From Candidatus Saccharimonadales bacterium (GTDB taxonomy: Bacteria; Patescibacteriota; Saccharimonadia; Saccharimonadales; DASZAF01), in the NCBI GenBank assembly GCA_035480055.1, contig DATIIB010000007.1, positions 4,360 through 68,359 on the forward strand: 64,000 nucleotides of DNA, read 5' to 3'. Each line of letters opens with the position of its first letter. The first letter of the stretch is position 1. Below the pieces are notes generated by a model. The model was not told where the DNA came from, did no database searches, and saw only the letters and a list, made by a program, of their open reading frames with translations. Below, one piece after another: positions 19,500-54,203 of the stretch. A program made the position numbers and the translations under genes.

Positions 19500-19589
19500 A
19501 ATTACTCCTTTAAGAATTTAAGGCAGCGAGTGAGAGTATACACCTTCACTACGCATAAGCGCTATGGAATAATTAACAACAAGCGACGA

Positions 19590-20324: not shown

Positions 20325-20394
20325 GTGAGCAGACCTCTTTATTTAGCTATTACTATACCATAAAAGCTAATCAAATGCAATGGAATATTCTCAC

Positions 20395-21066: not shown

Positions 21067-21123
21067 GGCTTCTATTATGCAATACCTTCGCCTAATTTCC
21101 TCATTACTTTCGGTTGACACCCG

Positions 21124-21132
21124 TGCTATAGT
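21124..21132 (+). promoter_or_regulatory. Possible extended -10 element (TGCTATAGT) for the gene at 21179
   Basis: Direct reading. It lies 47 nt upstream of the ATG. No clear -35. Confidence 0.3.
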
Positions 21133-21178
21133 TAAGCCAAAGTAAGCACAAGCTTCACTAAAATTTGGAGAGATCGCC

Positions 21179-22762
21179 ATGCTCAAACTGCACGCATTTA
21201 GACGAAAGTTTAGTCTCTTACATATCTCCATCAGCACCGCACTCCTTTTGAGCGGTGCTCTTTTCTTATTTACCCCCAAAGCGGTTGCGGCTGGGTGTGC
21301 CATGCCAAGTACCGATTACGGTTCTGCCACCACCACGGTGACCGTTGGCAGTACCGGCACGTACAACATCTGGAGCTTACTGAATACTGCGAATAGCGCC
21401 AACAATTCCTACCTTCTGGATATCGACGGAGCAAGCTGTACGCCAGTAGGCGGCACCAGCCTCACCGCCAATACCTGGACATGGGTGGATTACCAAAATG
21501 GCTCAACGACAAATAAAGCGACTGTCACGCTTTCTGCAGGACAGCACACCCTCAAGTTAATCGGCAATGCTGCTAATGTGAAGGTTGGACGAATTCTCTT
21601 CCTGAGCGACACTTGCACACCAACTGGCCTTGGCGATAACTGTTTGGCAACAGCTGACCAAACGCCGCCAACAGTGTCACTCACCAGCCCAACCAATAAC
21701 GCCACAGTCACTAACTCAACGCCTATTACGGTCACTGCCGCTGATGCGGTAGGCGTGACTAAAGTAGAACTCTCTATCGACGGCGTACTGCAAACCACGC
21801 TGACCGCTTCGCCATATACCTACGCTTGGGACACCACCAGTCTGGCCAACGGAGCACACAGTATTAGCGCCAAGGCTTACGATGCTGCGGGCAACAGCAG
21901 CACGGACACGGTTCAGGTGACTGTCCAAAACGGCGATACCCAAGCACCGACCACGCCGACAAACCTCACCGCAACCGCCCCAGCCTACAACAAAGTGTCA
22001 CTTAAGTGGACGGCAAGTACCGATAACATTGGGATCGCCAACTACCGCATTGTGCGAAACGGCACGCTAATCGCACAAGTTAGCGGCACCACCTACACCG
22101 ACGCAACTGTCACTGCCAAAACTGCGTACAGCTACCAACTCCAAGCTGTTGATGCAGCTGGCAATGTCTCTGGACTCTCCGCTACCGCCAGCGTTACCAC
22201 CCCGAGCGTTCCAGACACTCAAGCACCGTCAGCTCCAACCAACCTCAGCGCGACGGCAGTCAGTGCGTCGCAAATCAACGTCAGCTGGACAGCCAGCACC
22301 GATAACACCGGCGTCACTGGCTACGATGTCTACCGCTCCAACGGCGGCAGCGCGACCAAGATCGCTACCGTCACCACCACAAGCCTTGGCGATTCAGCAC
22401 TTTCGGCAAACACCGCCTACACCTATTACGTCATCGCCCGCGATGCGGCTGGCAACTCCAGCGCACCTTCATCCACGGCGCAAGCGACAACGCAGGCGAC
22501 GCCACCAACCAACAACACCGGCGTCCTCCAAGGCCGCGTGACCAATACCTCAGGCACAGCGCTGAAAGCTACCATCAGGGTTACCCTGAATGGCACGACG
22601 CACAACTACGGCACAGATTCACAAGGCAATTACCTCATTGGTCAGCTGCCTGCCGGAACCTACCGAGTTCACTACAGCGCCCGCGGCTACACCGCCCAAA
22701 CCTATCAATTGGTTATTACGGCCAGCACCACAACCACTAAAAATGTGCAACTTACAAAGTAG
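21179..22762 (+). CDS. Secreted modular protein: N-terminal domain, Ig-like domain, two FN3 domains, carboxypeptidase-regulatory-like domain
   Basis: 527 aa with SD GGAGAG. Signal peptide ...LFLFTPKAVAAG. An Ig-like module resembles those at 14871-15422. Two FN3 domains carry WTASTDN(I/T)G(I/V)..Y. C-terminus: GVLQGRVTN..G..L.....V......Y.T.TDS.GNY.I..L..G.Y. Confidence 0.75.
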   Translation: MLKLHAFRRKFSLLHISISTALLLSGALFLFTPKAVAAGCAMPSTDYGSATTTVTVGSTGTYNIWSLLNTANSANNSYLLDIDGASCTPVGGTSLTANTWTWVDYQNGSTTNKATVTLSAGQHTLKLIGNAANVKVGRILFLSDTCTPTGLGDNCLATADQTPPTVSLTSPTNNATVTNSTPITVTAADAVGVTKVELSIDGVLQTTLTASPYTYAWDTTSLANGAHSISAKAYDAAGNSSTDTVQVTVQNGDTQAPTTPTNLTATAPAYNKVSLKWTASTDNIGIANYRIVRNGTLIAQVSGTTYTDATVTAKTAYSYQLQAVDAAGNVSGLSATASVTTPSVPDTQAPSAPTNLSATAVSASQINVSWTASTDNTGVTGYDVYRSNGGSATKIATVTTTSLGDSALSANTAYTYYVIARDAAGNSSAPSSTAQATTQATPPTNNTGVLQGRVTNTSGTALKATIRVTLNGTTHNYGTDSQGNYLIGQLPAGTYRVHYSARGYTAQTYQLVITASTTTTKNVQLTK

Positions 22763-24269: not shown

Positions 24270-24330
24270 TTACCGTACCAAGGTATTGTCCTGGCGAGAG
24301 ACAGCAAAACCGACTACAATAAGCTTAAGC

Positions 24331-26673
24331 ATGGAAATAGATTCATCCGTTTTTGCCAAGTACTTACGCGCCGCCAATTACCTCACCGCAGCGCAGATCT
24401 TTCTGCAAGATAACTTCTTGCTTGAGCGCGAACTGCGGCCCGAAGACATTAAGCCGCGGTTGCTAGGGCACTGGGGTTCAGGACCAGGGGTGAATTATGC
24501 CTACGCGCACTTAAGTTACCTTGCCAAGACCAAAGACCAAGACATGATGTTTGTGCTGGGTCCAGGGCATGCCTTTCCGGCATTGCAGGCCAACCTATTT
24601 TTGGAAGGAACACTTGGAACATTCTACCCTGAAGCAGCTCAGACACTCGAAGGCATCAGCTACATCTGTCGCCAGTTCAGCTGGCCGTATGGCTTTCCGA
24701 GTCACAGCAATCCGGGCACTCCGGGCGTAATCTTGGAAGGCGGCGAGCTGGGCTACTCTTTGGCAACCGCATATGGAGCCGCACTTGATAATCCAGACCT
24801 GTTGGTGGCATGTTTGGTTGGCGATGGCGAAGCCGAAACCGGCCCTACCGCTGGCGCATGGCATCTCAACAAGTTAGTTAATCCACGAACCAATGGTGCC
24901 GTGCTCCCGATCCTTCATCTTAACGGCTACAAAATTTCTGCCCCAACCGTGTTTGGGCGCATGAGCAATTACGAACTCATGGCGCTCTTTAGCGGCTACG
25001 GCTATCACCCGCGGATCGTCGACGCCACAGTGACCGATGATCCGCAAGCAGCTATGGCCGAAGCGATGGACTGGGCGTATGACCTTATTCAAGAAATTCG
25101 CACGAGCCAGAGCCAAACCGCGCCACTCATGCCCATGATCATCATGCGAACCCTCAAAGGCTGGACCGGCGTTAAGGAGCTGGCTGGGCAAAAGATTGAG
25201 GGCAACTGCCTATCGCACCAAGTGGTCTTGACCGAAGCCAAAACCAATCCCGAGCAGTTGCAACTCCTGGACCAATGGCTGCGCTCCTACAATTTTAACG
25301 AACTCTTTTCCATTCAAAATGGCTTTGGCGAACTCACTCAAGATATCTTCCCCGACGACCCAGCCCGCCGTATTGGCGCCAGCCCCCATGCTCGTGGCGG
25401 CAGCGAAGTGCTCAAGCCCCTCGTTCTGCCTACTGCCGAAGAGTTTGCAGAAGACGCCACCATTCCGGGAACTATCGGCTCCAGCAGCATGCGCCGCGCG
25501 GGGCTATTTCTGAGTAAGGCATTCGAACTCAACCAAGACACCAAAAACTTCCGGATGATGTCGCCGGACGAAACCTATTCCAATAAGCTTGATGCCGTCT
25601 TTACCCAAACCAGCCGCGCCTGGCAATGGCCGTTGGAAGAATGGGACAAAGATATGTCGCCAGATGGGCGCGTAATGGAGATGCTCAGTGAGCACAATCT
25701 GCAAGGTCTGGCTCAAGGCTACACCTTGACCGGCCGGCACTCGGTGTTCGCCAGTTACGAAGCATTTATTCAGGTGATTGTCAGCATGATGGACCAATAT
25801 GCCAAATTCCTCAATCAATCTTTGCAGGTGAAGTGGCGCGGCGATATTCCATCGCTCAACTACATCCTTACTTCATCTGGCTGGCGACAGGACCACAATG
25901 GTTTTAGCCACCAAAACCCTGGTTTTATCGATGATGCCTTACGGCGCCAAGGCGACTTTGTGGATGTCTACTTTCCGCCAGATGGCAACTCCACTTTGGC
26001 CGTGCTGGAGCATATGTTGGGGTCGGTGAATCATATTAACATCTTGGTGGCTGGCAAAACACTCGAGCCGCGTTGGCTCACACCAGCCGCTGCCCGAGAC
26101 GCGCTGGTGTCTGGAATCACCACCTGGGATTTTGCAAGTGATGATGATCCAGATGTGGTGCTGGCAGGTGTGGGTGATTATCCCACCAAAGAAGCCATGG
26201 CCGCGCTTGATTTGGCAAAGAAGGCCTGGCCAGACCTCCGGCTACGAATGGTGAATATTTCTTCGCTGACCAGTTGCGGACTTGGACAAGGCGGCACCTG
26301 TGTCACGCAAGATGGTTTTAACCAACACTTCACCACCGACAAGCCAATTATCTGCAACTTCCATGGGTACCCCGAAACGCTCAAAGCTATCTTTTTTAAC
26401 TACATTGATTCGCCTACTCGTTGCGGCATTCACGGCTATATTGAAAGTGGCTCGACCACCACGCCATTTGATATGCATGTGCGCAACAAAACCAGCCGCT
26501 TCCACTTAGCGATCGAGATCTTTGAACGAGCGGCTGCCCAGGGCCGCGTACCCCAAGCTGACGCGGAGCGAATAATGGCGCAGTTCCAACAAAAGATCGA
26601 TGACAACACCGCATACATTAAGATTCACGGCGTGGATATGCCAGAGATAGACGCATGGCAGTGGCACCGCTAA
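24331..26673 (+). CDS. xfp: Xylulose-5-phosphate/fructose-6-phosphate phosphoketolase
   Basis: 780 aa from ATG 24331. Motifs: YLRAANYLTAAQIFL, LLGHWGSGPG, EGGELGYSL, VGDGEAETG, SSGWRQDHNGFSHQNPG. Confidence 0.93.
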   Translation: MEIDSSVFAKYLRAANYLTAAQIFLQDNFLLERELRPEDIKPRLLGHWGSGPGVNYAYAHLSYLAKTKDQDMMFVLGPGHAFPALQANLFLEGTLGTFYPEAAQTLEGISYICRQFSWPYGFPSHSNPGTPGVILEGGELGYSLATAYGAALDNPDLLVACLVGDGEAETGPTAGAWHLNKLVNPRTNGAVLPILHLNGYKISAPTVFGRMSNYELMALFSGYGYHPRIVDATVTDDPQAAMAEAMDWAYDLIQEIRTSQSQTAPLMPMIIMRTLKGWTGVKELAGQKIEGNCLSHQVVLTEAKTNPEQLQLLDQWLRSYNFNELFSIQNGFGELTQDIFPDDPARRIGASPHARGGSEVLKPLVLPTAEEFAEDATIPGTIGSSSMRRAGLFLSKAFELNQDTKNFRMMSPDETYSNKLDAVFTQTSRAWQWPLEEWDKDMSPDGRVMEMLSEHNLQGLAQGYTLTGRHSVFASYEAFIQVIVSMMDQYAKFLNQSLQVKWRGDIPSLNYILTSSGWRQDHNGFSHQNPGFIDDALRRQGDFVDVYFPPDGNSTLAVLEHMLGSVNHINILVAGKTLEPRWLTPAAARDALVSGITTWDFASDDDPDVVLAGVGDYPTKEAMAALDLAKKAWPDLRLRMVNISSLTSCGLGQGGTCVTQDGFNQHFTTDKPIICNFHGYPETLKAIFFNYIDSPTRCGIHGYIESGSTTTPFDMHVRNKTSRFHLAIEIFERAAAQGRVPQADAERIMAQFQQKIDDNTAYIKIHGVDMPEIDAWQWHR

Positions 26674-27839
26674 TTCTGATCGCTAATCCAGGTAGCGCGA
26701 GCCGTAAGTACGCCCTGTTTCGGGCCAAAAAAATCGTGGCCGAGCTTCATTTTGAATATCGCGACGAGCGCGTTATCTGCACCCTTACCCATAACGGAAG
26801 TCGCGTAGAACTCCCAGTGGAACTACCCACACTCAAAGATGCGACCAGTCATGTAGTGCAGTTTTTTAAGGATCAGCATATCCTTACCGATGAAACGCCG
26901 ATTGGCGCAATCGGTTTGCGGGTGGTAGCACCGGGCGCGTTCTTTTTGCAACATCGACAGCTGGACGAAGCCGCCATTTCGCAGCTGGAAGCACTGGAGG
27001 CACGCGCGCCGCTGCACATCAAAGCTACCTTGACTGAGTTGCGGTTGCTGCGACGGCATTTTCCTCATACGCCAATCTTTGGACTTTCCGACAGCGCGTT
27101 TCACCACACCAAACCAGATTACGCTTGGAACTACGGCATTACTTTGGCAGACGCTGACCAATTTGATATTAAACGCTTTGGCTACCACGGCCTTTCGGTC
27201 GGCGCCGCGGTCGAGAGTTTGCGCAAAGCACACAAGCTGGCACCCAAAACGGTTGTCTGCCACATGGGTAGCGGCATCAGTGTCACCGCGGTGCACGAAG
27301 GTCAAAGCCACGACACCACCATGGGATATTCCCCGCTCGAAGGACCGCTCATGGCCACCCGTAGCGGCAGCGTTGATTACAGCGCTATTCAGGCACTCAA
27401 AGAAGCTCGCGGTTTTAGCACCAGCGAACTCGAAACCTATCTCAATGCGCAAAGCGGCCTCCTTGGTCTGGGCGGCTCATCTGATGTACGCGAACTTTTG
27501 CAACGCGAAGCACATGGCGACCACTACGCCGCACTTGCCTTAAAAACATTTGTCTATTCAATCCAAAAAGCCATCGGCCAGATGAGCGCCGCGCTAGGCG
27601 GCATGGATCTGTTGGTGCTTACTGGCACCATTGGCGAACGTTCGGCGCCGATTCGTCAGCGGCTCGTAGCTGGGCTGGGCTATCTGGATTTTTTTGTTGA
27701 AACTAAAGCCAATCACCATTGTACCGACCCCCAAGAAGCCACAATAATCAGTCGCCTGGCTCACTCCCGTCCGGTATACGTCGTGCCAACCAACGAAGCC
27801 ACCGAGATGGCTCGTCATCTACAAGAGCTGCTTAAGTAA
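26655..27839 (+). CDS. ackA: Acetate kinase
   Basis: 394 aa, with a 19-nt overlap with xfp. Motifs: LILIANPGSASRKYALF, FGYHGLS, CHMGSGISVTA, GGSSDVRE, LVLTGTIGERS. Confidence 0.9.
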   Translation: MAVAPLILIANPGSASRKYALFRAKKIVAELHFEYRDERVICTLTHNGSRVELPVELPTLKDATSHVVQFFKDQHILTDETPIGAIGLRVVAPGAFFLQHRQLDEAAISQLEALEARAPLHIKATLTELRLLRRHFPHTPIFGLSDSAFHHTKPDYAWNYGITLADADQFDIKRFGYHGLSVGAAVESLRKAHKLAPKTVVCHMGSGISVTAVHEGQSHDTTMGYSPLEGPLMATRSGSVDYSAIQALKEARGFSTSELETYLNAQSGLLGLGGSSDVRELLQREAHGDHYAALALKTFVYSIQKAIGQMSAALGGMDLLVLTGTIGERSAPIRQRLVAGLGYLDFFVETKANHHCTDPQEATIISRLAHSRPVYVVPTNEATEMARHLQELLK

Positions 27840-31038: not shown

Positions 31039-33246
31039 ATGTTATATGACTATGGTGACACAACCACGGATAGTGGTCTGCCTCAAGAGCGGTTTGAAAG
31101 CCCTAGGGACGCATCCGACACCAATGCTTTACAGCCATCTGAAGACAAAGAACAGGCCGAGGTGGAAGGTCGTATTGCGGCAAATTCCCTCCCAATTACA
31201 GCAGTAGTCGAAGATGGGGACGCCTTCGATGTGACAGCAACCGAGAAAGCAAAACAGCCAGCTTTTACTCCACCCCTTAAGGGTGCCGTACCTTTAATAG
31301 TAGAGATCCCGAAAGGTACACCCACACAGACCGAACAATCTGCCCAGGAGCCAGATCCTGAACTCACTCCCCTAGCAGACAAAGAAGTTGCACGTCGCTT
31401 CCTACCAAAGAGACATGCTGGTAAATCTCCCCAGGAAAATCAAGAACCTGCAGAGATTCAAGAAGATTCAGCCGAAACACCTCCTCCAGCGAGTGGTGCT
31501 GGCGAAGGCGGGGATGGCGGTAAAGAACCACCTCCGCCACTTTCTGGTTCGGGAGAGGAGGAAGAACCTGGGGAAAAAGCCGGCAAAGAAAAGCTAGTGC
31601 TCAAACAGCAAGGCGTCAGCGAGGCGGCGACACAGAGTAGACTCGGCCTCGAATTCCAAAAAAGCCGCTCAGCCAAGGATGAGGCAATTATTACTGGGCT
31701 GAAGGCAAAAGGAGCCAGCTTTGCGCAGGCGGCGGCATACAGTCGAGATACAAGAGAAAACCTTGCGAGAGTGACGAAACTATATGTTGAGCTTAAACCT
31801 ATAACCAAAGTTGTCACCAACACTCAGGGAATCGAGGAGAGACCAGGACGCACCGCAGCCAGTGTCGAAGCCTACGTGAGTGCCGAGAAACCTGAGCCTC
31901 GTGAGTTAGTGAAAATGGTGGATACCTTTGCAGACCAGTTGCTAAGGGGAGTTGCGACCCAAGACTTCGATATTGTAGACGTCATCATTGGCTCACATGC
32001 CTTTGAACAAGCAAGCAAAGCTATTTTCGCTACAGTAGCTTCAAACCATCCAGAGGAAGAGGCGGAGATAGAGACGGTTCGCCAAGCTTTAGTAGACCAG
32101 ATTACCTTCCGCCTCATGGATCAGGTGCCCTTTGAGCAAACGGTCCGACTCTTCCCGTGGGAGATTGAAGAGGTTGCCAAAGCCTCCCTTGGAAGCGACG
32201 CTGAATTCAGCGAGCGCACCATCGGTCGTATTTCAAGAAGCATGTTCGACCATGTGATTGTCACAAACTTAGCCGCCTTTAACGAACATATGGAAAGTAA
32301 AGAGGCATCGCGCAGGCTTCCCTCACTAACCCGCCAGCTTACTGCCGGATTAGCAGCAAGACAAGAGGAAGGAGGCCAGATGCCAACTCTGGTAGTAAAA
32401 GGTTCGGATATTGGCTTCCCCGCAGGCGTAGATATTATTATGGGTCATCCAGACGTATACGGCGAGCCGCGACCCGAAAATGAGAAAGTGATAGCAGACT
32501 TTTATATTGTAGAGTCGCGCGAAATACATCAGCTTCCAATCATGGAATGGGATGAGGCCGGGTTTAGAGTGATCTTTGGCGAAGAAGAAAAAGCTACAAT
32601 GCCACTCCGTCTTTTCGCAGACGGGAAGGTTGACTACGGCTGGCCACTATTAGGAGCTCCTCATCGACCTATCGATCCTATTTTTAGAGCGCTCAATGCA
32701 CAGGGTGCTCTGGACTACACCGTGTGCATACTCGCGGCGCTAGCCACAGACGCCACCGCGCCGCCCGAGGTCATAGAAATCGGAGGCGGACAGAGTGTTC
32801 CAAGGATTATCAGCGACGCCACCGCCGAAGGCCGTAGTGGCGGTGAGCTACTGGATATCATGGCTACCACGGTTATCCCTCAACGCATAGCAATAGTGCA
32901 CAACCGAGAGCATAGTGAAGATAGTGCCGGAACCGGTACGCCAAAGCGCTGGCATACTGCAAAGGCCCACGCCAGGATTCTCCGCGAAGGCTACAGGCGA
33001 AGTCAAGATAACTTGAACAAATACCTACGTGACCTTGAAACTAAACGCATTCAACCTTTACGCCCAGAGGATGACATGGCTATTCGCGAAGGAAGAAAGT
33101 CGTATGTGCCGCCTTCAGAGCGTGGCGATAAAAGCCGGGGAAGCGTGGTTTCCAGGCGGGCCAGACTTGGCGAAGGCGCAACTCGACAAATAACCGATCT
33201 AGGCCTCCCAGGGTCAGGCGATAGCGACCAATCATCCAGTGAGTAG
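31039..33246 (+). CDS. Large acidic hypothetical protein (ORFan-like)
   Basis: 735 aa with no signal peptide. The ~190-aa disordered acidic/Pro-rich N-terminus contains PPPASGAGEGGDGGKEPPPP, followed by a folded-looking ~500 aa. No family recognised. Confidence 0.6.
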   Translation: MLYDYGDTTTDSGLPQERFESPRDASDTNALQPSEDKEQAEVEGRIAANSLPITAVVEDGDAFDVTATEKAKQPAFTPPLKGAVPLIVEIPKGTPTQTEQSAQEPDPELTPLADKEVARRFLPKRHAGKSPQENQEPAEIQEDSAETPPPASGAGEGGDGGKEPPPPLSGSGEEEEPGEKAGKEKLVLKQQGVSEAATQSRLGLEFQKSRSAKDEAIITGLKAKGASFAQAAAYSRDTRENLARVTKLYVELKPITKVVTNTQGIEERPGRTAASVEAYVSAEKPEPRELVKMVDTFADQLLRGVATQDFDIVDVIIGSHAFEQASKAIFATVASNHPEEEAEIETVRQALVDQITFRLMDQVPFEQTVRLFPWEIEEVAKASLGSDAEFSERTIGRISRSMFDHVIVTNLAAFNEHMESKEASRRLPSLTRQLTAGLAARQEEGGQMPTLVVKGSDIGFPAGVDIIMGHPDVYGEPRPENEKVIADFYIVESREIHQLPIMEWDEAGFRVIFGEEEKATMPLRLFADGKVDYGWPLLGAPHRPIDPIFRALNAQGALDYTVCILAALATDATAPPEVIEIGGGQSVPRIISDATAEGRSGGELLDIMATTVIPQRIAIVHNREHSEDSAGTGTPKRWHTAKAHARILREGYRRSQDNLNKYLRDLETKRIQPLRPEDDMAIREGRKSYVPPSERGDKSRGSVVSRRARLGEGATRQITDLGLPGSGDSDQSSSE

Positions 33247-33253
33247 CTCAGAT

Positions 33254-33838
33254 CTAGTCTTCTGACCACACTTTCCTGGTCTCGCCAAGTTGCGTAATAC
33301 GCTCCTCCAGTTCCTGCCAGTCACGGACGCGCGTCACTCGTTCGGGAAGCTCATGAGTGTGATTGTAAGGTGTGTCGAGCAAGAAAAGATGCGGCACAAG
33401 AGGCACCAATTCGCCAAGCTGCGTCACGTCATCGTCCACATACACCTGAAAGCCATGCTCCAGGACGCGGCTTTTATCGCCGCCAGGACCAACGCTCACC
33501 AACGTATCCGGTGCTAACCAGCGCTCCTGAAGCCATTGGCGCGCAAACTGCACTCCTGCGGGTTGAATTCGAGTCACCAAAAAGACTTCGTATTGCTTCA
33601 TGAGTTTAGCCAGCCGCACCTGCCCAGCCAATGTGACAGGAGGGGATGCCAACATCTCTGACGTGCCCTACACTATATCCTGCAGTTTTTCATAAAGCTC
33701 AACCGGCATGGCGCTGTCGAGCGCTCTGAGTACGGCGTTTTCGATACGTAAGTCTATGCCAAAATATTTTTTGGCTACCCGCGTTTTGCTGTGTGCGTTG
33801 TTGATCACAACACCGTTAAGGTCAAATCCGATTCGCAT
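33254..33838 (-). pseudogene. HAD-superfamily hydrolase-like gene (NT5C/nucleotidase-like size) interrupted by one in-frame TAG
   Basis: ATG 33838 with strong SD GAGGAG. Translation reads MRIGFDLNGVV...PVELYEKLQDIV, TAG at 33668-33670, then the same frame continues GTSEMLASPP...EVFLVTR...GDKS...YVDDD... to 33254. The HAD motif I is degenerate (DLNGV). Confidence 0.5.
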
Positions 33839-33955: not shown

Positions 33956-35863
33956 ATGACCCGTTTACCAAGCCCAGGCGCTGATAGTGGTACGTGGGGG
34001 AATATCCTCAATGACTACTTATCTCAATCACACAATAGCGACGGTTCGCTTAAATCCAGCGCAGTCACCGCCGCTGGCGCTTACGCCAAACCCGGCACGG
34101 GTATTCCCGCAAGCGACCTCGATACTGCTTCGCAAACCAACCTCACCTTAGCAAGCAGCTCAGTACAGTCTGTTAATACCAAGCTTCCCGTTACCGGGAA
34201 TGTTACCCTCGCAGCGACAGACGTCGGAGCTGTGCCGCTCACCACACCAACCGTACCGTCGGCTGTGGGTCTATTATGGAGTGACGAATTTACCGAATCC
34301 AGCATGTCCTACGCCACCGACACCGGCGGCGGAACCTGGCGCACCAAGCCTCACGAAGCGGGCGGTACATTAACCAATGGCTACACAGACTTCGCTGGTT
34401 CATCCTGGAACGTAAGCGCAGCTGACGCCACCACATACGGCGTGGTTACCATTGCCAGTTCGGTAATGACCATCAAAGCCAAACGCAACCCTGGCCTCCC
34501 CGGCGTGTCCAACACCTGGATCGGGGCGCAGCTTTCCACCAATCACCTTATACCAAACCTCACTTGGCGCTATGGTTACTTTGAATGGCGCATGAAATTG
34601 CCCAATCCTTCTCGAGGTATGTTCCCGGCGCTGTGGTTGTTTAACAATGATATTACTCGCTCCAGCGCAACAGCTGGCGCCGAAATTGACGTGATAGAAA
34701 TTTTTGGGAAGTCCTCAGGCAGTCCGTGGAACGCCGGCGTGCACTACAACAACGGTGGCTTGCAAGGAAGCGGCATCAAAAACGAACCAGTCGTGACCGC
34801 AAGCGATGATATTACGGGCTGGCATCGCTATGGGGTCGACTGGCAATCCGACCATATCACCTTTTATAAGGATGGCGCAGTAGTTGGCAATGTGTCCCCC
34901 GAGGGAGTGGTGTGGTTCCAAACGGCGAATCTTGGGATTCGTATGGACTATGTGATGGATCCGACTTTTGTGGGCGCAAGCGACCAATCTACGGTCAGCG
35001 ATCCGGCACCTGGAGTTACGCCGCAAATGGATGTCGACTATGTGCGCGTGTATTCTGCGTACCCGACAGGCATGGCCACTGGATCGGCCGACCCTTTGGC
35101 TACTTTGTCGCCAAGCACCACGTCCTCGCCGTCGCGAGTGCAAATCGCGCCCCTCGTTTCGGGCGAACCGGTTACCGCCGCTCCAATCAATGCGCTTATT
35201 GGCAACGACGTCGAGCACAACTCTCGCATCGTAACCCTTGAATCCAACACGCGGGTACAAACCGACGCTACCCAACAGATCCGCAAAATGTACGCCGCAA
35301 CTTCCGGCAGCCCAACCGTAGGCATTGACGAGCTCTACAACGCAGGTGGCAACCTTAAGTACCAACTGTCACCAGATGGCAACGGCCGCTTTGACGGCAC
35401 CGCGCTGAATGATCCCATCAGCAGCAATGGCTCTGGTGTCTTTGTGGGCCAAAAAGATGGCAACCGACGCGTAATAATGGTGAACGGCAACGCCGGCCAA
35501 GATGTACAACTCGACAACAACAACGGTACCTTCCGCTTAATTCAAAATACCGGCAGCCGGTTTGAAGTCAACACCAACCAGGCGACCTTTAAGGTTGGGC
35601 GTGTTATCTCTACCTCCACCGTCACGACAGCTCAAACGCTCTCATTAGGCAAGGAAATGATCTTCGCCAACTCTGCCTCGCCAATGACCCTGACGTTACC
35701 TTCTGCCGTGACGAGTGGGGCTGGCGCGAGCTTTTTAATTAAGAATCTTGGCGCTGGCACAGTGACCGTTGCTTCGGTTGCTGGCACTGTAGAGACCACC
35801 AGCATTGCGACAACCGTTGTAGTCCGCTATGTCAGCGACGGCACAAATTGGTGGTCGGTGTAG
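33956..35863 (+). CDS. Tail-fibre-like N-terminal module fused to a GH16 glucanase domain and a C-terminal beta-rich domain
   Basis: 635 aa. The N-terminus MTRLPSPGADSGTWGNILNDYL..SDGSLK is shared with 35886-37073. GH16 motifs: GAEIDVIEIFG (ExDxxE) and WHRYGVDWQSDHITFYKDG. Confidence 0.8.
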   Translation: MTRLPSPGADSGTWGNILNDYLSQSHNSDGSLKSSAVTAAGAYAKPGTGIPASDLDTASQTNLTLASSSVQSVNTKLPVTGNVTLAATDVGAVPLTTPTVPSAVGLLWSDEFTESSMSYATDTGGGTWRTKPHEAGGTLTNGYTDFAGSSWNVSAADATTYGVVTIASSVMTIKAKRNPGLPGVSNTWIGAQLSTNHLIPNLTWRYGYFEWRMKLPNPSRGMFPALWLFNNDITRSSATAGAEIDVIEIFGKSSGSPWNAGVHYNNGGLQGSGIKNEPVVTASDDITGWHRYGVDWQSDHITFYKDGAVVGNVSPEGVVWFQTANLGIRMDYVMDPTFVGASDQSTVSDPAPGVTPQMDVDYVRVYSAYPTGMATGSADPLATLSPSTTSSPSRVQIAPLVSGEPVTAAPINALIGNDVEHNSRIVTLESNTRVQTDATQQIRKMYAATSGSPTVGIDELYNAGGNLKYQLSPDGNGRFDGTALNDPISSNGSGVFVGQKDGNRRVIMVNGNAGQDVQLDNNNGTFRLIQNTGSRFEVNTNQATFKVGRVISTSTVTTAQTLSLGKEMIFANSASPMTLTLPSAVTSGAGASFLIKNLGAGTVTVASVAGTVETTSIATTVVVRYVSDGTNWWSV

Positions 35864-35885
35864 GGCCGATCACCTGGGCGAATAC

Positions 35886-37073
35886 TTACTGAATTTGGAA
35901 CTGCACTGCAGCGACGTTGTTGTTCTCGACATTAGGCGTCACGCCAGTGAGACTCGAGAGCGCACCTGTTATCCCCGTATATTGATAGCCGACGATGCTC
36001 GGGAATTGATAAAACGAGTTCCAACCAACAAACTGCGCGGCGTGCGCATAAGCTTGCAGAATCGGTGCTGTCGAGTTAGTACCTTGCCACACTGCGCCGA
36101 GCCAAATGCGATCTGGCGCCACCACTTGGTTGATGCTCACCGTCTTGACCCCCGTTGTATCTCCGGCCACCGTCCCAGCATCCAGGAGCACATTGCCCGC
36201 CAGTCCAGCACCATCGCTCGAGAAAATACCCAATCGAATCGTTGAACCCGCAGTACCAGCCGTCTTCACGTTGCAGCCAATACTCGAGAGCGTTACCTGC
36301 TTTTGGCAATCAAAAGGAAACACCCACAAAAGCTGGTAGGTCATCGTCCGGTTTCCGCCTCCTCCATCCATTGGATACCACCAGGTGGAACGAAGTGGGA
36401 CCGGTGTGGGAAGCTGCCCAAAAGCTGCCGCGTCAGTTGCAGCGGTTCCGTTGGCCAGCCCTGTGATCTTCTTGCTGTTCATGGCTACATTTGCAGCCGT
36501 AGGGTTAGCGGTCGCGATGCTGGAGAGATCGCTTGTACTGGCGAGCGCCCCAACTTGAGCTGCCGTATAGTCGCCGCTCTGGGCAATAACCGCTCCGGTG
36601 CGAGTAAACACACTTGTCACCGGCGCACTCGGCGCAGAGCTCCACTGAGCTGCGGTGCTAGTAGTGGCGATAATAATCTTGCCATTGCTGGGCGTACCGC
36701 TGATCGTCACGCCGTTGATCTTCGCAACGCCAGGATTGGGATATGTTCCCGAAAGATCTCCGCCGGCAGCCGCCCCAGATTGTAGCGAATTGTCTGCAGC
36801 AGAAAGTGAGGTCTGCACAGCGGAGGATAGATCAGTCTTTGGTATACCACCAGCTGGTTTGGTGTATTTACTGGCTACTGAATCAATAGTGGTTTGGGTG
36901 GCACTATCAAGGTCGCTCTCCGGAATCCCGCCGCTCGGCTTGGAGTATCCGCCAGCTGTCGTGATCGCACTGCTTTGTAATGTGCCATCTGCGTTATGGC
37001 TCACCTGAAGAAAGTCGTTGAGGATATTCCCCCACGTACCATTATCTTGACCAGGCGTAGGCAGGCGCGCCAT
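35886..37073 (-). CDS. Phage tail-fibre-like protein
   Basis: 395 aa. N-terminus MARLPTPGQDNGTWGNILNDFL..ADGTLQ; repeated KP.GGIP..DL units; NSKKITGLANGTAATDAAAFGQL is the tail-fibre type motif. No signal peptide. Confidence 0.65.
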   Translation of the reverse strand: MARLPTPGQDNGTWGNILNDFLQVSHNADGTLQSSAITTAGGYSKPSGGIPESDLDSATQTTIDSVASKYTKPAGGIPKTDLSSAVQTSLSAADNSLQSGAAAGGDLSGTYPNPGVAKINGVTISGTPSNGKIIIATTSTAAQWSSAPSAPVTSVFTRTGAVIAQSGDYTAAQVGALASTSDLSSIATANPTAANVAMNSKKITGLANGTAATDAAAFGQLPTPVPLRSTWWYPMDGGGGNRTMTYQLLWVFPFDCQKQVTLSSIGCNVKTAGTAGSTIRLGIFSSDGAGLAGNVLLDAGTVAGDTTGVKTVSINQVVAPDRIWLGAVWQGTNSTAPILQAYAHAAQFVGWNSFYQFPSIVGYQYTGITGALSSLTGVTPNVENNNVAAVQFQIQ

Positions 37074-44602: not shown

Positions 44603-46906
44603 ATGAATATAGATCCCATGCGTATTACCCAAGAGAAACGTAAGGTAGCCAAAAAGGCTCGCACACATTCTCCGCTAACTAGCCGAGTTTCCGCTACATT
44701 CCGTTGGCCTCAGTTGCTTGCGATGATAGTCGCGGTGGTAGCTATCGGACAGATTACAATACAGGTCTTTGCGGCAAGCCCCGCAGCCTACAACCAGCTT
44801 ACAGATTACGTAGACCCGTTCATTGGCACCAATGCGTCACCGCTTTCCACCTATGGTATCGGGTTTGACACAGGCGACGTTTTTCCGGGTGCGGTTGCAC
44901 CCTCTGGCATGCTCGCTTGGTCACCAGACACATCTCCGACGAAACTTCCTGGCGGGTATAATTACCCCGATAGCACTATTAAAGGCTTTAGCCTCACGCA
45001 TTTCTCTGGACGCGGATGCAACTATGCCGAGGATGTACCGATCATGCCCGTACCGCAGGCGGTGTCAGCCAGTCCAACGACTCAAGCATATACCTCATCG
45101 TTTTCACATGCCAATGAGTCAGCGCGACCGGGCTATTACCAGGTAAAGCTCGATTCGGGTATTACCACCAAGCTCGCAACCACTACACGAACCGGTATCG
45201 GCCAGTTTACCTTCCCAGCCGAGGCTAGTTCGAGTTTTATTATTAACTCTGGTGGCAGTGTCAACGGCGCGAGTGCGGCTACGGCTACTATTGACGCAGC
45301 GAGCCAACAAGTGACTGGCTCAGTAACGACCACCGTGGGTTGCGGAACCGGCAAGTACACGCTCTATTATGTCACGCAATTTAGCCGACCGCTCCAGAGT
45401 TATGGCACATGGACAGGCAGTACATTGCAGCCGGGTGGCACCACAGGCTCCGATGCGCAAACCGGAGCATATGTGAGCTTCGACACCTCAAGTGACCAAG
45501 CCGTCACCGTAAAGACAGCCATCTCCTATGTGAGCGTGGCAAATGCACAGGCCAATCTGGCGGCAGAACAAACTGGGTGGGACTTCGCAGGCGTTGCGGC
45601 AGCTACGAATACCGCATGGAATACCATCTTAGGCCGCATACAAGTTGGCGGCGGAACAGACAGCGACCGCAAAGTATTTTACACCGCAATATACCACTCC
45701 TTCATCGATCCAAGCGTGTTTAGCGATGTCAACGGCCAGTATATCGGTTTTGACAACCAGGTTCACACCACAGCGGCAGGCCGAACGTTTTACAGCAATA
45801 TTCCGCTATGGGACCAATATCGGACGAATGTACCCCTGCGGGCGCTGCTCATGCCAGCTGAGACCAGTGATATTATTCAGTCGCTCATCGACGACGCGCA
45901 TCAAGGTGGCGGCGGATTGCCCCGTTGGGTACAAGCCAACCGCAACAGCGCTGGGATGATTGCCGATTCTCCAGATCCATATATCGCCAGCGCCTACGCT
46001 TGGGGCGCGCGCAACTTTGATACAGCCGAGGCACTCAAACTGATGGATGCCGGCGCCTCCAAAACTGGCGTGACATCAGACGGTCATGTGGTACGCGAGA
46101 ATTTGAGTGACTGGCTGAGCAAACATTACGTGCCGAATAATGTCTCACTCACGTTAGAATATGCCATCGACGATTGGTCAATCTCGCAGTTTGCCGGCTT
46201 GCTCGGCAACACCACCATGGCCAGCACCTACAAGACACGATCACAGTATTGGCATAACACTTTTAATACCAAAACGCTGTACGCCGAGCCACGCTCATCG
46301 ACCGGCACATATCCCACGACGTATGATCACGCCAAGCGGCAAGACCCATTTGCTGAAGGTAACTCCGCGCAATATACCTTGATGGTGCCGTTTGACTATA
46401 CAGGGCTCGCCAAAGCATTGGGTGGCTCAAGCACGGTTAAAACGCGGCTGGATAACTTCTTTACCAGTCTGGACGCTGGTCCCAATTCGGCACACGAATG
46501 GATTGGCAACGAGCATAGCCTATGGTCGCCGTATCTCTATAGCTATGCCGGAGCAATGGCCTCGACACAAAAGACGGTCCGCAACATTGAACTTACCACG
46601 TTCAGCACCGCCCCTGGCGGTCTGCCAGGCAACGATGATGCTGGCGCTACTTCATCTTGGTATATATTTTCGGCAATGGGACTTTTTCCAAAAACGCCAG
46701 GACAGGCCGGATTCTCCTTGGCAAGTCCCCTGTTTACCGATGTAGTAGTGACGCCGGAGAGCGGCGCAGGCTTTCATGTCACCGCGCCGACCGCGAGCGA
46801 CAGCACGCCGGTGCTCCCCAATGTCACAGTAGACGGCACGGCCTTTACCGGGAACTGGATCACTATGGATCAGTTGGCAGGCAAGACGATCAACTGGAGT
46901 AATTAG
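44603..46906 (+). CDS. GH92 family alpha-mannosidase-like glycoside hydrolase (membrane-anchored/secreted)
   Basis: 767 aa. Motifs: YVDPFIGT, GDVFPGAVAPSGMLAWSPDT, GFSLTHFSGRGC, GNEHSLWSPYLYSYAG, LPGNDDAGATSSWYIFSAMGLFP. Confidence 0.88.
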   Translation: MNIDPMRITQEKRKVAKKARTHSPLTSRVSATFRWPQLLAMIVAVVAIGQITIQVFAASPAAYNQLTDYVDPFIGTNASPLSTYGIGFDTGDVFPGAVAPSGMLAWSPDTSPTKLPGGYNYPDSTIKGFSLTHFSGRGCNYAEDVPIMPVPQAVSASPTTQAYTSSFSHANESARPGYYQVKLDSGITTKLATTTRTGIGQFTFPAEASSSFIINSGGSVNGASAATATIDAASQQVTGSVTTTVGCGTGKYTLYYVTQFSRPLQSYGTWTGSTLQPGGTTGSDAQTGAYVSFDTSSDQAVTVKTAISYVSVANAQANLAAEQTGWDFAGVAAATNTAWNTILGRIQVGGGTDSDRKVFYTAIYHSFIDPSVFSDVNGQYIGFDNQVHTTAAGRTFYSNIPLWDQYRTNVPLRALLMPAETSDIIQSLIDDAHQGGGGLPRWVQANRNSAGMIADSPDPYIASAYAWGARNFDTAEALKLMDAGASKTGVTSDGHVVRENLSDWLSKHYVPNNVSLTLEYAIDDWSISQFAGLLGNTTMASTYKTRSQYWHNTFNTKTLYAEPRSSTGTYPTTYDHAKRQDPFAEGNSAQYTLMVPFDYTGLAKALGGSSTVKTRLDNFFTSLDAGPNSAHEWIGNEHSLWSPYLYSYAGAMASTQKTVRNIELTTFSTAPGGLPGNDDAGATSSWYIFSAMGLFPKTPGQAGFSLASPLFTDVVVTPESGAGFHVTAPTASDSTPVLPNVTVDGTAFTGNWITMDQLAGKTINWSN

Positions 46907-48084: not shown

Positions 48085-50478
48085 CTATTGAATGCAAGCC
48101 AGCGGACTCACTGTAGAAGTGACATTATAGAGCGAGTCGATGGTTACTAGGGAGTTGCCGGTCCAGTTTTGGTTCGCGCAGGTACCTTCTGCAGTCACGG
48201 CGGCATACTGCCAGCTATTGTTGACAATACGATTGTCGCGGAAAATCCAAGCCGCACCGCCGCGATACTCAGAGTAGATGGTATAGCCGCCGCCTCGCAA
48301 AAGGTTGTCGGTAACGGTGATGTTTGAGATACCAGCACCGTCTGAGTTTGAGCCAAGGTAGACAGTACGAGCGTCTCCATGGGCATTATTTACAGTTTGC
48401 GCGTCGATGGTGTTGTGGCTAAGTACTAAGTTTGAACAAATACCTCCACAATAATTCTGGATGCCATCTGAGTGACTGCCATCAGGTTGTGATGCAGATG
48501 GTGGGTTCCAGCATAAGTTGGCGTATGAATCGGTAATAGTGACGTTGCTGCCGCCCATTCGGAAGCCGTCATCGTGGCCGCGAACCTGCACACGCGTTGC
48601 GGTAAAGTCGGATTCGCCAATCCCAGGGAAGCCAATACAGCCAGTTGCGGGACCTACCGTGGTGTCAGTTATGGTGAACGAGTAATGCGCTGCGCCGTGT
48701 TCATTGTCGACCGACCCATCAATCTGACTATTTTTGATAACCACATTGTTAGCCCAGATAATAAGGTCGCCGGTAATGTGACGCGCATCAATTACCTCGC
48801 CGTCGGTAGTGGCCGTGTAGTCGCCGGTGACGGTCGCTGGCTGAATTGTGGAGGGCATGCCGGTACAGCTGGCATTCGGATATGCGGGAAGTGCGCAGCT
48901 GTTGGTGCTAACCGCTGGCGTGGTCACGGCTGTGGCTGCCGATTGTGCAGACTCATTGCCTGCCACGTCGTAGGCCGAGACGGTATAGCTATAGGTAGTG
49001 TTCGCGGACACCGTGGTGTCTTGGTAAGTTGGCGCAGTGGTGAGAGCGATTTGGACGCCATCGCGGTAGACTTTGTACCCAGCAACGCTCACATTATCGG
49101 TTGCGGCGTTCCACGAAACGGTTACTTTGGATGACGACACTGCCTGCACTGTCACGTTAGTAGGAACGGTTGGAGTCGCGCTATCAGCTAAAGTCGTTGC
49201 AACCAGGCTAGCTGATTGTGCTGATTCGTTGCCACCAGCGTCGTAGGCGGAAACTGCGTAGGTGTAACTCGTGTTGGGGGTAAGGTTCTGATCAGTAAAA
49301 GTGGTAGTCGCGCTGGTGCCGACCATAGTGCCATTCCGATAGATTTTATAACCTGCCACACCAGTGTTGTCGGTCGCCGGACTCCACGAGAGGCCAACTT
49401 GCGTTTCGGTGGCACTCGTACTCGCCAGGTCGGTCGGGACGCTCGGCGCCTGGGCGTCTGCGGGAGCCAGCGTGGTTGCTTGGAAACTATTGGTATAAGC
49501 GCTGGCATTGCCGGCTGCATCAACCGCCTTGAGACGGTAGCTGTAGGTAGTTGCTGCGCTGAGTCCTGTGTCGTTATAGCTAGGGCTCGTGACTGTTGCA
49601 AGAGGCACAAAAGCGGTACAACCTGCACCCAGACAGCGTTCAATCTGGTATCCAGTCACACCGACATTATCAGTAGAAGCGGTCCAGCTCAGATTAATCT
49701 GCGAACTAGAGACAGCATTTGCCGTGGCATTGGTAGGCGAAGTTGGCGCAGTGGTATCAACACCAGAATCAGGCCGAAAAGCGATAAGCTGCAATGTCCA
49801 GCCGCCGTTACTATTTGTCGCCGTCGCATTATACGAACCAGGGGCTGCCGCTACTCTGTCCATAGTACGATTACCTGAAGTCGTCAGGCGACCGGTGTAG
49901 GCAGAACTAATCGACTTTACCGACCCTACCGAACCGCTGGCTGCAAATAGCAAATCGTTAGCAGTAGCGGTGGTAAGCGAGCCACTGTTCATGGCGGTAC
50001 CCGAACCTGTAGTCCCAACCGTACTTTCAAGTGGGTTTGTCTTGCTCATACCTGCATATTCATGTGTCTGCACGATCGCATACGCATTGATGTTAGTCGC
50101 AAAGGTCGCTTTTACCGTATTGGTGCCACCCAAGATATTCTTGGCATAAAAAGCTTGCGAACTACCCCCGCCCCACGATGTTTTAGCAGTTGCTGCAGCA
50201 TAGGTGTTGCCCAAACTGTCAGAAAGGTTCACTGCATCGGTATTGTTCCAAAGTACGTAGACAACAATCAGGTCGCCTGCGGTGTTGGCGCTCGCAAATG
50301 TGACACTGTTACTATTCCCCGAGCTAATTTCATTCGCCTTGGCTTGTTTGAAGCTCGGTGACGCTGCCGCACTCGGGTGCGCAAAGAGACTCACCGAGAG
50401 CAACACCGCGACAAGCGTGATTCCCGTTAGACCGACTAATATTCGAGCACGTCTGAAGGGAATCTGTAGTATGTTCAT
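48085..50478 (-). CDS. Large secreted protein: N-terminal beta-sandwich-like domain, three FN3 domains, C-terminal Cys-rich beta-helix-like domain
   Basis: 797 aa. Signal/anchor LTGITLVAVLLSVSLFAHPSAAA. Three FN3 domains carry (L/V)SW.(A/P)(S/A)TDN.GV(T/A)GY. The C-terminal 270 aa (48088-48897) are paralogous to 23184-24269. Confidence 0.8.
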   Translation of the reverse strand: MNILQIPFRRARILVGLTGITLVAVLLSVSLFAHPSAAASPSFKQAKANEISSGNSNSVTFASANTAGDLIVVYVLWNNTDAVNLSDSLGNTYAAATAKTSWGGGSSQAFYAKNILGGTNTVKATFATNINAYAIVQTHEYAGMSKTNPLESTVGTTGSGTAMNSGSLTTATANDLLFAASGSVGSVKSISSAYTGRLTTSGNRTMDRVAAAPGSYNATATNSNGGWTLQLIAFRPDSGVDTTAPTSPTNATANAVSSSQINLSWTASTDNVGVTGYQIERCLGAGCTAFVPLATVTSPSYNDTGLSAATTYSYRLKAVDAAGNASAYTNSFQATTLAPADAQAPSVPTDLASTSATETQVGLSWSPATDNTGVAGYKIYRNGTMVGTSATTTFTDQNLTPNTSYTYAVSAYDAGGNESAQSASLVATTLADSATPTVPTNVTVQAVSSSKVTVSWNAATDNVSVAGYKVYRDGVQIALTTAPTYQDTTVSANTTYSYTVSAYDVAGNESAQSAATAVTTPAVSTNSCALPAYPNASCTGMPSTIQPATVTGDYTATTDGEVIDARHITGDLIIWANNVVIKNSQIDGSVDNEHGAAHYSFTITDTTVGPATGCIGFPGIGESDFTATRVQVRGHDDGFRMGGSNVTITDSYANLCWNPPSASQPDGSHSDGIQNYCGGICSNLVLSHNTIDAQTVNNAHGDARTVYLGSNSDGAGISNITVTDNLLRGGGYTIYSEYRGGAAWIFRDNRIVNNSWQYAAVTAEGTCANQNWTGNSLVTIDSLYNVTSTVSPLACIQ

Positions 50479-51918: not shown

Positions 51919-51946
51919 TCCCACCCCTCATTTATGTTGTCCCTTA

Positions 51947-51957
51947 ATTGTAGCAGA
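51947..51957 (-). promoter_or_regulatory. Extended -10 element TCTGCTACAAT upstream of the FG-GAP/M15 gene (here with a ~20-nt leader and an SD)
   Basis: The reverse complement of 51947-51957 is TCTGCTACAAT. This is the third copy of the 11-mer. Confidence 0.5.
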
Positions 51958-52090
51958 CTGTTGTAATTATCTCCCAGTTTCCGTGACGTTGCTATTTTTG
52001 CTCAATCTCCCGGCACAGCATTATAATTGAGCTATAGTAAAGGATAAGAATGGCTAAAAATAAAACAGAAAAAATGGAAAACCCCATTGA

Positions 52091-52591: not shown

Positions 52592-52852
52592 ACTTCAAGT
52601 TGAAGACTATTGTTCATCATTACCTCGATTTGTCCTCAAGTCTTAACTGATTGAGGATAAATCATGGCTGGTCACGTAACCAAAAATTGGAACACCGTTT
52701 ATCAGAGTTGGATCGCCCATGTTTACAGCTGTGAGGATTGGAATGGCTAAGAGAATTGTATGAGGGAAGGTACTGGAGTAATTGTGCCCTTTCCGTCAAC
52801 GGATTGAAAATGTGTGGCAAAGAGAAACACTTTAAATTTGGTAATTTTACGA

Positions 52853-54202: not shown

Positions 54203-54203
54203 A

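Follow-up and report, generated by a model that had tools for sequence, protein, structure and literature searches.

The 64,000-nucleotide stretch of Candidatus Saccharimonadales contig DATIIB010000007.1 analysed here (the window) carries two convergent genes, A and B, whose products, judging from sequence comparison, are built from phage tail-fibre and receptor-binding parts. We give an even chance to the reading that they are chromosomal, selectively maintained, phage-derived receptor-binding proteins, docking by a shared N-terminal module (the N-module) on anchor proteins that bear a short YGxGxYGG peptide (the YG peptide), possibly after export as hitchhikers on the twin-arginine translocase (Tat). 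A wider proposal, namely that Saccharibacteria and some other members of the candidate phyla radiation (CPR) and Actinobacteria have turned a phage fibre-baseplate docking pair into a cell-surface display system, is possible but falls somewhat short of that: the N-module would be the plug and the YG peptide the socket, with the socket placed on a tiny Tat-signal adaptor, cl2, acting as a ferry, and on sortase- or Sec-targeted wall proteins. Phage receptor-binding proteins kept by a cell are of a known kind, whereas a Tat-coupled plug-and-socket display may be previously undescribed; a full-text literature search found no published description of the N-module family or of such a plug-and-socket system.

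The pair comes from a Candidatus Saccharimonadales metagenome-assembled genome (MAG), and each protein is 100% identical to its NCBI entry:

33956..35863, plus strand: gene A, open reading frame (ORF) of 635 aa; at NCBI 'MAG TPA glycoside hydrolase family 16 protein', Candidatus Saccharimonadales
35886..37073, minus strand: gene B, ORF of 395 aa; at NCBI 'MAG TPA hypothetical protein VLF60_02825', Candidatus Saccharimonadales

The stop codons of the two genes lie 22 bp apart. Comparison of A with B by BLASTP gives a single significant segment, residues 1-63 of both proteins, in which 42 of 63 positions are identical (67%, E 3e-25), with 25 identities among the first 35 residues; no third copy of this N-terminus was found by tblastn within the window. 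Neither ORF can be extended upstream, and N-terminal hydropathy gives no signal peptide or hydrophobic segment in A or B: the maximum Kyte-Doolittle value of a 15-mer in the first 70 aa is 0.55 for A and 0.12 for B, against 2.0-3.0 in the nine other secreted-type proteins of the window, all of which have an N-terminal signal or anchor, A and B being the only exceptions. A Tat signal (S/T-R-R-x-F-L-K followed by a hydrophobic h-region) is likewise not present on A or B themselves, which start M-T/A-R-L-P with a single arginine. Promoters and terminators were also sought near the two genes, and no candidate that fitted the gene ends scored better than in shuffled sequence.

Protein A combines an enzyme of glycoside hydrolase family 16 (GH16) with fibre-like ends:

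33956..34060, plus strand: N-module, MTRLPSPGADSGTWGNILNDYLSQSHNSDGSLKSS (aa 1-35; BLASTP of A against B, family alignment)
34073..34144, plus strand: single KPxxGIPxSDLxxAxQT repeat (aa 40-63; weak match to phrog_27373 'tail protein')
34268..35095, plus strand: GH16 catalytic domain (aa ~105-380; Pfam PF00722, AlphaFold, Foldseek, PDB sequence matches)
34682..34699, plus strand: catalytic motif E243-I-D245-V-I-E248 (alignment of 37 sequences)
35273..35860, plus strand: beta-rich C-terminal region (aa ~440-635; phrog_37034, AlphaFold strands)

The repeat, which forms arrays in the phage-like proteins P0094 and P0096, is joined to the GH16 domain by a linker. By all comparisons the GH16 domain is intact. 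PF00722 matches aa 190-314 with 60.5 bits against a cut-off of 22 (E 1.8e-16); aa 105-380 are modelled by AlphaFold at a predicted local distance difference test (pLDDT) of 92-98, as a beta-jelly-roll that Foldseek superposes on solved GH16 enzymes, its best matches being laminarinases and beta-1,3(4)-glucanases (E ~1e-13, template modelling score 0.7-0.78); and E243, D245 and E248 (nucleophile, assisting aspartate and acid/base) are invariant across the 37 aligned sequences. Since the scores of A against the NCBIfam GH16 equivalogs are far below their cut-offs, its subfamily and substrate are not assignable. The nearest GH16 domains in other Patescibacteria have Sec-type signals at the position taken by the N-module in A, and the enzyme of A is therefore meant to act extracellularly. 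In the C-terminal region the beta strands are modelled at a pLDDT of 55-82, nonsynonymous divergence (dN) from orthologs is 0.12-0.20, and phrog_37034, whose function is unannotated, matches aa 537-634 (E 6.7e-6); the last ~100 aa seem to resemble phage fibre tip domains.

Protein B carries repeats followed by a beta-sandwich:

36969..37073, minus strand: N-module, MARLPTPGQDNGTWGNILNDFLQVSHNADGTLQSS (aa 1-35; BLASTP of A against B, family alignment)
36804..36953, minus strand: two KPxGGIPxxDLxxAxQT repeats (aa 41-63 and 68-90; phrog_27373 'tail protein', 2.4e-7)
36408..36776, minus strand: shaft made of three family-wide mosaic repeat types (repeat comparison across homologs)
35889..36407, minus strand: C-terminal beta-sandwich (aa 223-395; phrog_21562, tblastn, AlphaFold)

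The three shaft repeat types (GGDLSGTYPNPxVAKINGV..; APVTSVFxRTGAV.AQSGDYTAAQVGAL; SDLSSIA..NVAMNSKKITGLANGTAATDAAAFGQLP) reappear in shuffled order among homologs, where the motif NSKKITGLANGTAATDAAAFGQL at aa 199-221 of B is also found. The C-terminal domain matches phrog_21562 'tail protein' (5.6e-17), and tblastn with this region recovers, at 34-42% identity, products of Gordonia and Arthrobacter phages: tail proteins, an esterase and a glycoside hydrolase. It is 46% identical to a domain of P0002 (L007:9207-11212, on a 111-kb phage contig), encoded within a phage structural module with portal and capsid genes on one side and T4 gp19 and baseplate genes on the other. P0002 lacks the MARLP module, having instead the N-terminus MTIVVPIHGQANWDVPLNAALNQLE with a looser W..LN..L helix, and its gene is directly preceded by one for a 265-aa protein that consists largely of YG repeats. 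AlphaFold models aa 240-340 of B at a pLDDT of 78-90, and the model has 62 structural matches in BFVD, including phage collagen-type fibres, gp186 of the Streptomyces phage BRock and minor tail proteins. Matches to PDB folds are weak and of the CBM32/35/36 type (E > 1e-3); the beta-sandwich is probably glycan- or receptor-binding, and tentatively carbohydrate-binding. Homology to phage tail proteins was found for both members of the pair (phrog_21562 for B, phrog_37034 for A, the actinophage tblastn matches and the BFVD matches). The shaft regions of both models have a low pLDDT, as expected for obligate oligomers predicted as monomers. A YadA-like trimeric autotransporter adhesin was also considered for B and rejected: the YadA_stalk score of 18.4 bits is under its cut-off of 28.4, PDB matches to BadA and Vomp reach only E 0.019-0.42, and B has no signal peptide and no C-terminal anchor.

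A preliminary description, made from the DNA letters alone, had read the pair in much the same way, and its account of the architecture stands: both ORFs were recovered exactly, in convergent arrangement and with no signal peptide in either; they share an N-terminal module and then diverge; and the GH16 domain with EIDVIE (aa 243-248), the beta-rich C-terminus of A and the tail-fibre-type repeats of B are all present.

The N-module, found without exception at the very N-terminus, spans ~33 aa, with the consensus MARLPxPGxDxGTWGxILNDFLxVSHNxDGTL and 10-11 invariant positions (in the family alignment R3, L4, P5, P7, G8, D10, W14, G15, L18, N19 and L22). A search with the first 63 aa among clusters at 50% identity gave 5714 matching representatives, of which 642 reach E<=1e-10, and B has 729 homologs, with the motif starting at residue 4-6 in 77 of the best 120. 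Loci were collected by running a back-translated degenerate DNA pattern on GTDB species representatives, which gave at least 120. Among the 120 loci listed, 95 are labelled Saccharibacteria or Saccharimonad*, nine other CPR and four Actinomycetota, the remainder being unlabelled or possibly mis-binned; several copies per genome are common among them, with up to four or more in some. Genomes of ~1 Mb carry three to four or more dispersed copies, attached to many different enzymes. In 68 cellular members the cargo includes DUF5907 repeats, collagen, BppL_N, pectate-lyase/beta-helix domains, GDSL/SASA esterases, CBM5/12, endosialidase chaperones and phage tail tips, which is the receptor-binding toolbox of phages. 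Taken together, these matches describe a large, mosaic, multi-copy family heavily enriched in Saccharibacteria.

The same module also occurs in phages. The strict pattern had no match among 2.9 million IMG/VR contigs; a relaxed pattern found 28 viral contigs, and the module is present in the Streptomyces phages BRock and LuckySocke. Here too it is strictly N-terminal, with pectate-lyase spikes, collagen and similar domains downstream. Genes lying up to 5 kb from a viral copy belong most often to the PHROGs tape measure, tail protein, portal, major head and terminase. The commonest neighbour families at 32 Saccharibacteria copies are cellular, with tape measure, portal, capsid and terminase absent from the 25 commonest families among 149 neighbours. 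Neither the profile libraries nor the solved structures include the N-module, and its profile has no significant PDB match.

The setting of A and B is likewise cellular and outside any prophage. The window encodes a phosphoketolase, acetate kinase, RNase J, an FtsX-type ABC transporter with PadR, NUDIX, TrmD, ThyX and UDG proteins, together with carbohydrate-active enzymes (GH10, GH92, four polysaccharide deacetylases with CBM4_9 or Big_7, and GT2). No capsid, portal, terminase, tape measure or integrase gene was seen in it as far as it was scanned, there are no sheath, tube or baseplate genes in it, and the genes flanking the pair are cellular rather than part of a phage structural module. 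No tRNA, repeat or integrase signature brackets A and B, the sole tRNA of the window lying 20 kb away, and the GC content at the pair is like that of its surroundings. Full-length orthologs of A, 75-82% identical, are found in at least five other Saccharibacteria in different neighbourhoods; against two of them, synonymous divergence (dS) is saturated while dN is 0.09-0.25 in every segment, a pattern that indicates strong purifying selection on A.

These results bear on the three origins that the preliminary description had offered. It had noted that phage genes are missing around the pair, which holds across the whole 64-kb window as far as scanned; the pair does not sit inside an obvious intact prophage; and the similarity of the N-module to phage fibre proteins is borne out by BRock, LuckySocke and the 28 IMG/VR contigs, where it lies beside structural genes. 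Its suggestion that A and B might be remnants of a decayed prophage is rejected because dN is low with saturated dS across the segments of A. That the two genes are non-functional leftovers of an old prophage is accordingly very improbable in our view: they do have phage-like parts, no phage neighbours and number only two, but full-length orthologs persist in different contexts, the ORFs and catalytic residues are intact, and base composition does not set them apart. Its idea of domesticated phage receptor-binding proteins fits best of the three, given the phage parts, the cellular setting and the selection; the beta-glucan surface of another cell, on which it suggested they act, may be their target. 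Its remaining option, parts of a tailocin-like element encoded elsewhere, is disfavoured. Beyond the reach of the letters alone were the size of the N-module family, its enrichment in Saccharibacteria and its links to YG-tailed anchors and the Tat operon.

What the N-module might bind is suggested by the genes next to it. Seven of 30 phage N-module genes have a YG motif on their own strand that ends 0-600 nt upstream, and in five of these seven the motif closes the upstream protein, within its last 0-1 residues and 5-24 nt before the fibre start (conservative expectation 0.7, P 1e-5); one such C-terminus reads ...AYGSGTYGSGTYGGT* (stop). The upstream proteins with the motif are tail, baseplate, minor-tail or virion proteins, and on other phage contigs the motif stands at the N-terminus of the gene 3' of the fibre. 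Among cellular N-module genes a YG tail lies 21-479 nt upstream in nine of 125, in all but one of them as part of cl2 (expected 1.4, P 2e-5); the cl2-fibre pair also occurs in Mycolicibacterium agri, where the gene immediately before the N-module gene encodes a cl2-like RR protein that has a YG tail. cl2, tatA and tatC are all absent from the viral N-module loci. The Saccharibacteria proteins that bear the YG peptide have a Tat, Sec or sortase signal and are not baseplate proteins. BRock provided a test that could have failed: its N-module gene stands among tRNA genes, remote from the tail module, and in the ~108 kb examined the only strong YG motifs are an internal GYGEGTYGGGTYGG insertion in a loop of the tail sheath (L175:25002-26945) and the N-terminus of gp126 (L175:12232-14607), which is encoded beside baseplate genes. 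These two sites could be attachment points for remote accessory fibres, gp186 and possibly gp211. The simplest reading of these adjacencies is that the N-module would be a plug and the YG peptide its socket.

In Saccharibacteria the neighbourhood points to Tat, a system that is patchy in these bacteria, with few predicted substrates (Starr et al. 2018, PMC6031116). TatC is the most frequent neighbour family at their N-module loci (10 of 149 neighbour proteins), and an HMM search finds tatC in 18 of the 120 8-kb N-module blocks listed, against ~1-1.6 expected (P < 1e-13, with relatedness ignored); N-module genes are ~15-fold enriched beside the tat operon. The arrangement varies between genomes; the genes often run in one direction, with -18 to 219 bp between them. 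Seeding from tatC instead (15 loci) gave a conserved tatA-tatC-cl2 unit in 11 of the 11 loci with enough flank. cl2 is a protein of 60-85 aa whose Tat-like signal consists of x-R-(K/R)-x-F-L and an h-region of 17 uncharged residues; a basic residue follows and then a polar tail, which ends GYGxSxYGG in 29 of 30 distinct copies (in locus L156, ...STFGYGASVYGGRKG). Nearby lie genes for a sortase and for cl4, a small protein that has a YG motif at its N-terminus and carries an LAxTG-type sorting signal; cl6, with a Sec signal and the mature N-terminus YGxxxYGxCxY, neighbours N-module genes in five of 32 loci. At L156 a B-like fibre gene comes after that of a 77% ortholog of A, and next to it stand cl2, tatC and tatA, with a sortase alongside, and translationally coupled cl2-fibre(-tatC) arrangements are seen at, for example, L016 and L052.

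This envelope locus of Saccharibacteria (a sortase-like gene, cl4, tatA, tatC and cl2) often stands beside groES-groEL; examples are L156:13659-15463 and L158-L173, such as L164:6956-9346 and L173:9260-11891. cl4 (~75-115 aa) has an N-terminal AQxYGxGxYGxCxY, a linker rich in serine, glycine and threonine, and LAxTG/LxNTG with a transmembrane segment and a basic tail; it lacks an N-terminal signal peptide despite its sorting signal. N-module proteins are also encoded in cultured Actinobacteria, Mycolicibacterium agri CCUG37673 (L071:1270-1482) and Gordonia aichiensis NBRC 108223 (L074:1619-3823), on stretches of 59-62% GC. Saccharibacteria-type N-module genes in two MAGs labelled Acidobacteriota (L075, which carries a full tatA-tatC-cl2-fibre unit, and L022) and in Rhodoplanes sp. 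SY1 (L039, a 5.7-kb contig) are probably binning or contamination artefacts in public assemblies.

From these elements a mechanism can be proposed. Each family member would consist of a near-invariant ~33-aa docking module and a freely exchangeable shaft and tip, the exchangeable part being a GH16 endo-glycanase and a fibre-tip-like domain in A, and repeats with a beta-sandwich common to actinophage tail proteins in B. Because they have no Sec signal, A and B would fold in the cytoplasm, probably as trimers. The N-module would then bind a YG peptide, the genes for the two lying side by side: in phages the peptide would end a tail or baseplate protein encoded beside the fibre gene, and in Saccharibacteria it would be presented at the C-terminal end of cl2, and also on cl4 and cl6. 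cl2 might carry the folded fibre through Tat as a hitchhiker and hold it at the membrane, where YG peptides of wall proteins could take it over. Fibres at the surface would bind and cut glycans, most plausibly the envelope glycans of an actinobacterial host, as it is in actinophages that each part has its closest phage relatives, with environmental beta-glucans as the alternative target. Hitchhiking on Tat is an established export mechanism for other complexes (PMC4273604, PMC10924467). The window would hold two cargo genes only, the anchor and export genes lying elsewhere in the genome; dispersed cargo genes of this sort are the common layout.

Several observations weigh against docking on YG anchors and export by Tat. 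Only seven of the 30 phage N-module genes show a YG junction, and the adjacency statistics treat loci as independent, ignoring phylogenetic relatedness. The reciprocal search was negative: at the tatC-seeded loci (~8 with adequate flanks) and at L173 no N-module gene lies within 8-10 kb, the positive controls being matched, and in a near-complete genome with at least three N-module genes none is within 10 kb of the tat locus. The link to Tat is therefore an enrichment, and an obligate tat-fibre operon, which we had also considered, is rejected on the tatC-seeded loci without fibre genes. The window itself contains no tatA, tatC, cl2 or YG-motif ORF. cl2 has R-K in 19 copies against the canonical R-R in 9-10, and a fibre or spike, as a trimer, may exceed the size that Tat can pass. 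The N-module in the monomer models reaches a pLDDT of only 41-72. Finally, the window is rich in other carbohydrate-active enzymes, and nutrient scavenging is as plausible as host attack.

Some of these points would follow naturally if A and B were surface or secreted glycan proteins in which the N-module is a mere trimerisation or folding nucleus, exported by a route other than Tat, with the tat adjacency reflecting a shared envelope neighbourhood. The tatC-seeded loci without fibre genes, the prevalence of R-K in cl2 and the fact that most N-module genes, A and B included, are not near tat all agree with this, as does the presence of sortase and wall-protein genes in the tat locus, which makes it a general envelope locus. 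Trimerisation alone leaves unexplained, however, why a near-invariant module should stand beside a mosaic remainder, why unrelated phages should have the YG motif ending 5-24 nt ahead of the fibre start, and why cl2 and fibre genes should be coupled in L016 and L052 and paired in Mycolicibacterium; we consider this explanation unlikely. A little less probable still is that A and B are fibres of a phage-derived particle, whether a tailocin, an element like a gene transfer agent (GTA) or a cryptic prophage, that is encoded elsewhere, assembled on a YG-tailed baseplate and released by lysis. Such a particle would account for the phage tail proteins that are the nearest relatives of every part, for the tail and baseplate proteins that partner the N-module in phages, and for the location of P0002, the best C-terminal homolog of B, between portal/capsid and T4 gp19/baseplate genes; release by lysis needs no signal peptide. 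The Rhodobacter GTA is known to have fibre genes outside its main cluster, and the N-module gene of BRock likewise stands far from the tail module. The Saccharibacteria-type pattern is nevertheless found at no fewer than 120 genome loci against none in the 2.9 million IMG/VR contigs, structural families are missing from the commonest neighbours at the 32 loci as well as from the window, genomes of ~1 Mb maintain several dispersed copies with varied enzymes, and the YG peptides of Saccharibacteria sit on proteins with Tat, Sec or sortase signals instead of on a baseplate.

The proposed docking of phage-derived fibres on YG anchors has likenesses in several known systems. Closest are the fibres of actinophages: BRock gp186, LuckySocke gp41 and proteins of uncultured siphovirus-like IMG/VR contigs have the same N-module, 41-54% identical over the first 63-120 aa (E 1e-8 to 6e-14), and share the KPxGGIPxxDL repeat with A and B. 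BRock gp186 has the same overall layout as B, and LuckySocke gp41 carries a pectate-lyase spike, as do many family members. These fibres are phage-encoded and presumably virion parts, whereas A and B are chromosomal genes of a Saccharibacterium in a single-copy context, and the Saccharibacteria subtype (LPxPGxD...WG), unlike the phage versions, was not found in IMG/VR. In the baseplate of the lactococcal phage TP901-1 a short N-terminal segment of the lower baseplate protein BppL anchors an exchangeable receptor-binding trimer to the BppU holder (PDB 4V96, 3EJC), the same docking logic as is proposed for the N-module; the holder is a BppU-like domain there and would be the YG peptide here. BppL_N (Pfam PF18338) directly follows the N-module in eight of 68 family members, and in one of them aa 46-71 align to BppL aa 31-56; A and B have no BppL_N match at E<=1. 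Homology of the N-module itself to BppL_N was considered and rejected, as the BppL-like motif lies after the N-module, which has no detectable similarity to BppL or to solved structures.

For export, the parallel is with Tat hitchhikers such as E. coli hydrogenase-2 HybO/HybC and PaoABC, in which a folded protein without a signal is exported with a partner that has a Tat signal (PMC4273604, PMC10924467). The place of cl2 in the tat operon, often directly followed by a cargo gene, fits this logic. The known carriers are real enzyme subunits, whereas cl2, tiny at 60-85 aa and mostly with R-K, would act as a dedicated adaptor or anchor, with a large paralogous family of phage-like fibres as its cargo. 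Dockerin and cohesin in the cellulosome likewise put one small docking module on varied glycan-active modules (GH16, pectate lyase, esterases, CBMs), with the partner motif on cell-surface anchors in both cases; there is no homology, and the system proposed here would differ in its N-terminal, phage-derived docking module, in having a short YG peptide as the partner and in its cargo, which lacks Sec signals. Tailocins and GTAs with separately encoded fibres also represent phage-derived chromosomal fibres used by a cell, but no particle genes lie near the sampled Saccharibacteria copies, and the anchors bear envelope-targeting signals.

To our knowledge, little has been established about the means by which ultra-small CPR epibionts recognise and attack hosts, and Actinobacteria are the known host phylum of Saccharibacteria. 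The genetics of this interaction has so far comprised type IV pili, the type IV secretion system and a few unspecified adhesins (PMC10633639). Glycan-binding and glycan-degrading envelope proteins of a cultured Saccharibacterium were speculated to target host glycans by Wang et al. (2023, PMC10633639), who do not describe the N-module family or a link to Tat. This large, fast-shuffling family would supply concrete candidates for host-range determinants; given that its nearest relatives are in phages of Actinobacteria, epibionts and phages would share a toolkit for reading the same cell surfaces. If the display system exists, epibionts would gain a modular, phage-like armoury for host recognition, and Tat an adaptor-mediated class of cargo. 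Pairing of the N-module with the YG peptide, if true, would mean a previously undescribed attachment motif of actinophage fibres, a simple two-part tag for surface display and the first dedicated small Tat adaptor for a whole cargo family. Should the conservative part alone hold, the pair would still be a clean example of phage receptor-binding proteins domesticated outside any particle.

Other features of the window may be recorded. Positions 4514-22762 form a dense block of secreted polysaccharide-active proteins, comprising a GH10 xylanase-like protein, four polysaccharide deacetylases (two with CBM4_9, one with Big_7), two GT2 proteins and one Big_7/fn3/CarboxypepD_reg protein, with Sec-type N-termini on all secreted-type proteins of the block. 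A GH92 protein is encoded at 44603-46906 and an fn3/RGI-lyase-like protein at 48085-50478. The stretch 51000-57000 has a GC content of 0.42-0.46, against ~0.52 elsewhere, adjoins the sole tRNA of the window (tRNA-Gln CTG, minus strand, 57769-57843) and may be an island. Its products are VanZ, ThyX, NlpC/P60, a UDG-family protein and an unknown protein of 462 aa, and no integrase was found among the ORFs scanned. Two large, very acidic proteins without a signal peptide are encoded at 31039-33246 (plus strand), just upstream of A with a 133-aa ORF in between (33254-33655, minus strand), and at 61054-62937 (minus strand). Neither has a Pfam or PHROG match, and their N-termini are alike (SP.[DE]ASDT.A.QP), but a paralogous relationship was rejected at a BLASTP E of 0.43. 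Lastly, a phosphoketolase (XFP) gene is followed by acetate kinase at 24286-27839, an ATP-yielding pair of heterofermentative type in a reduced genome.

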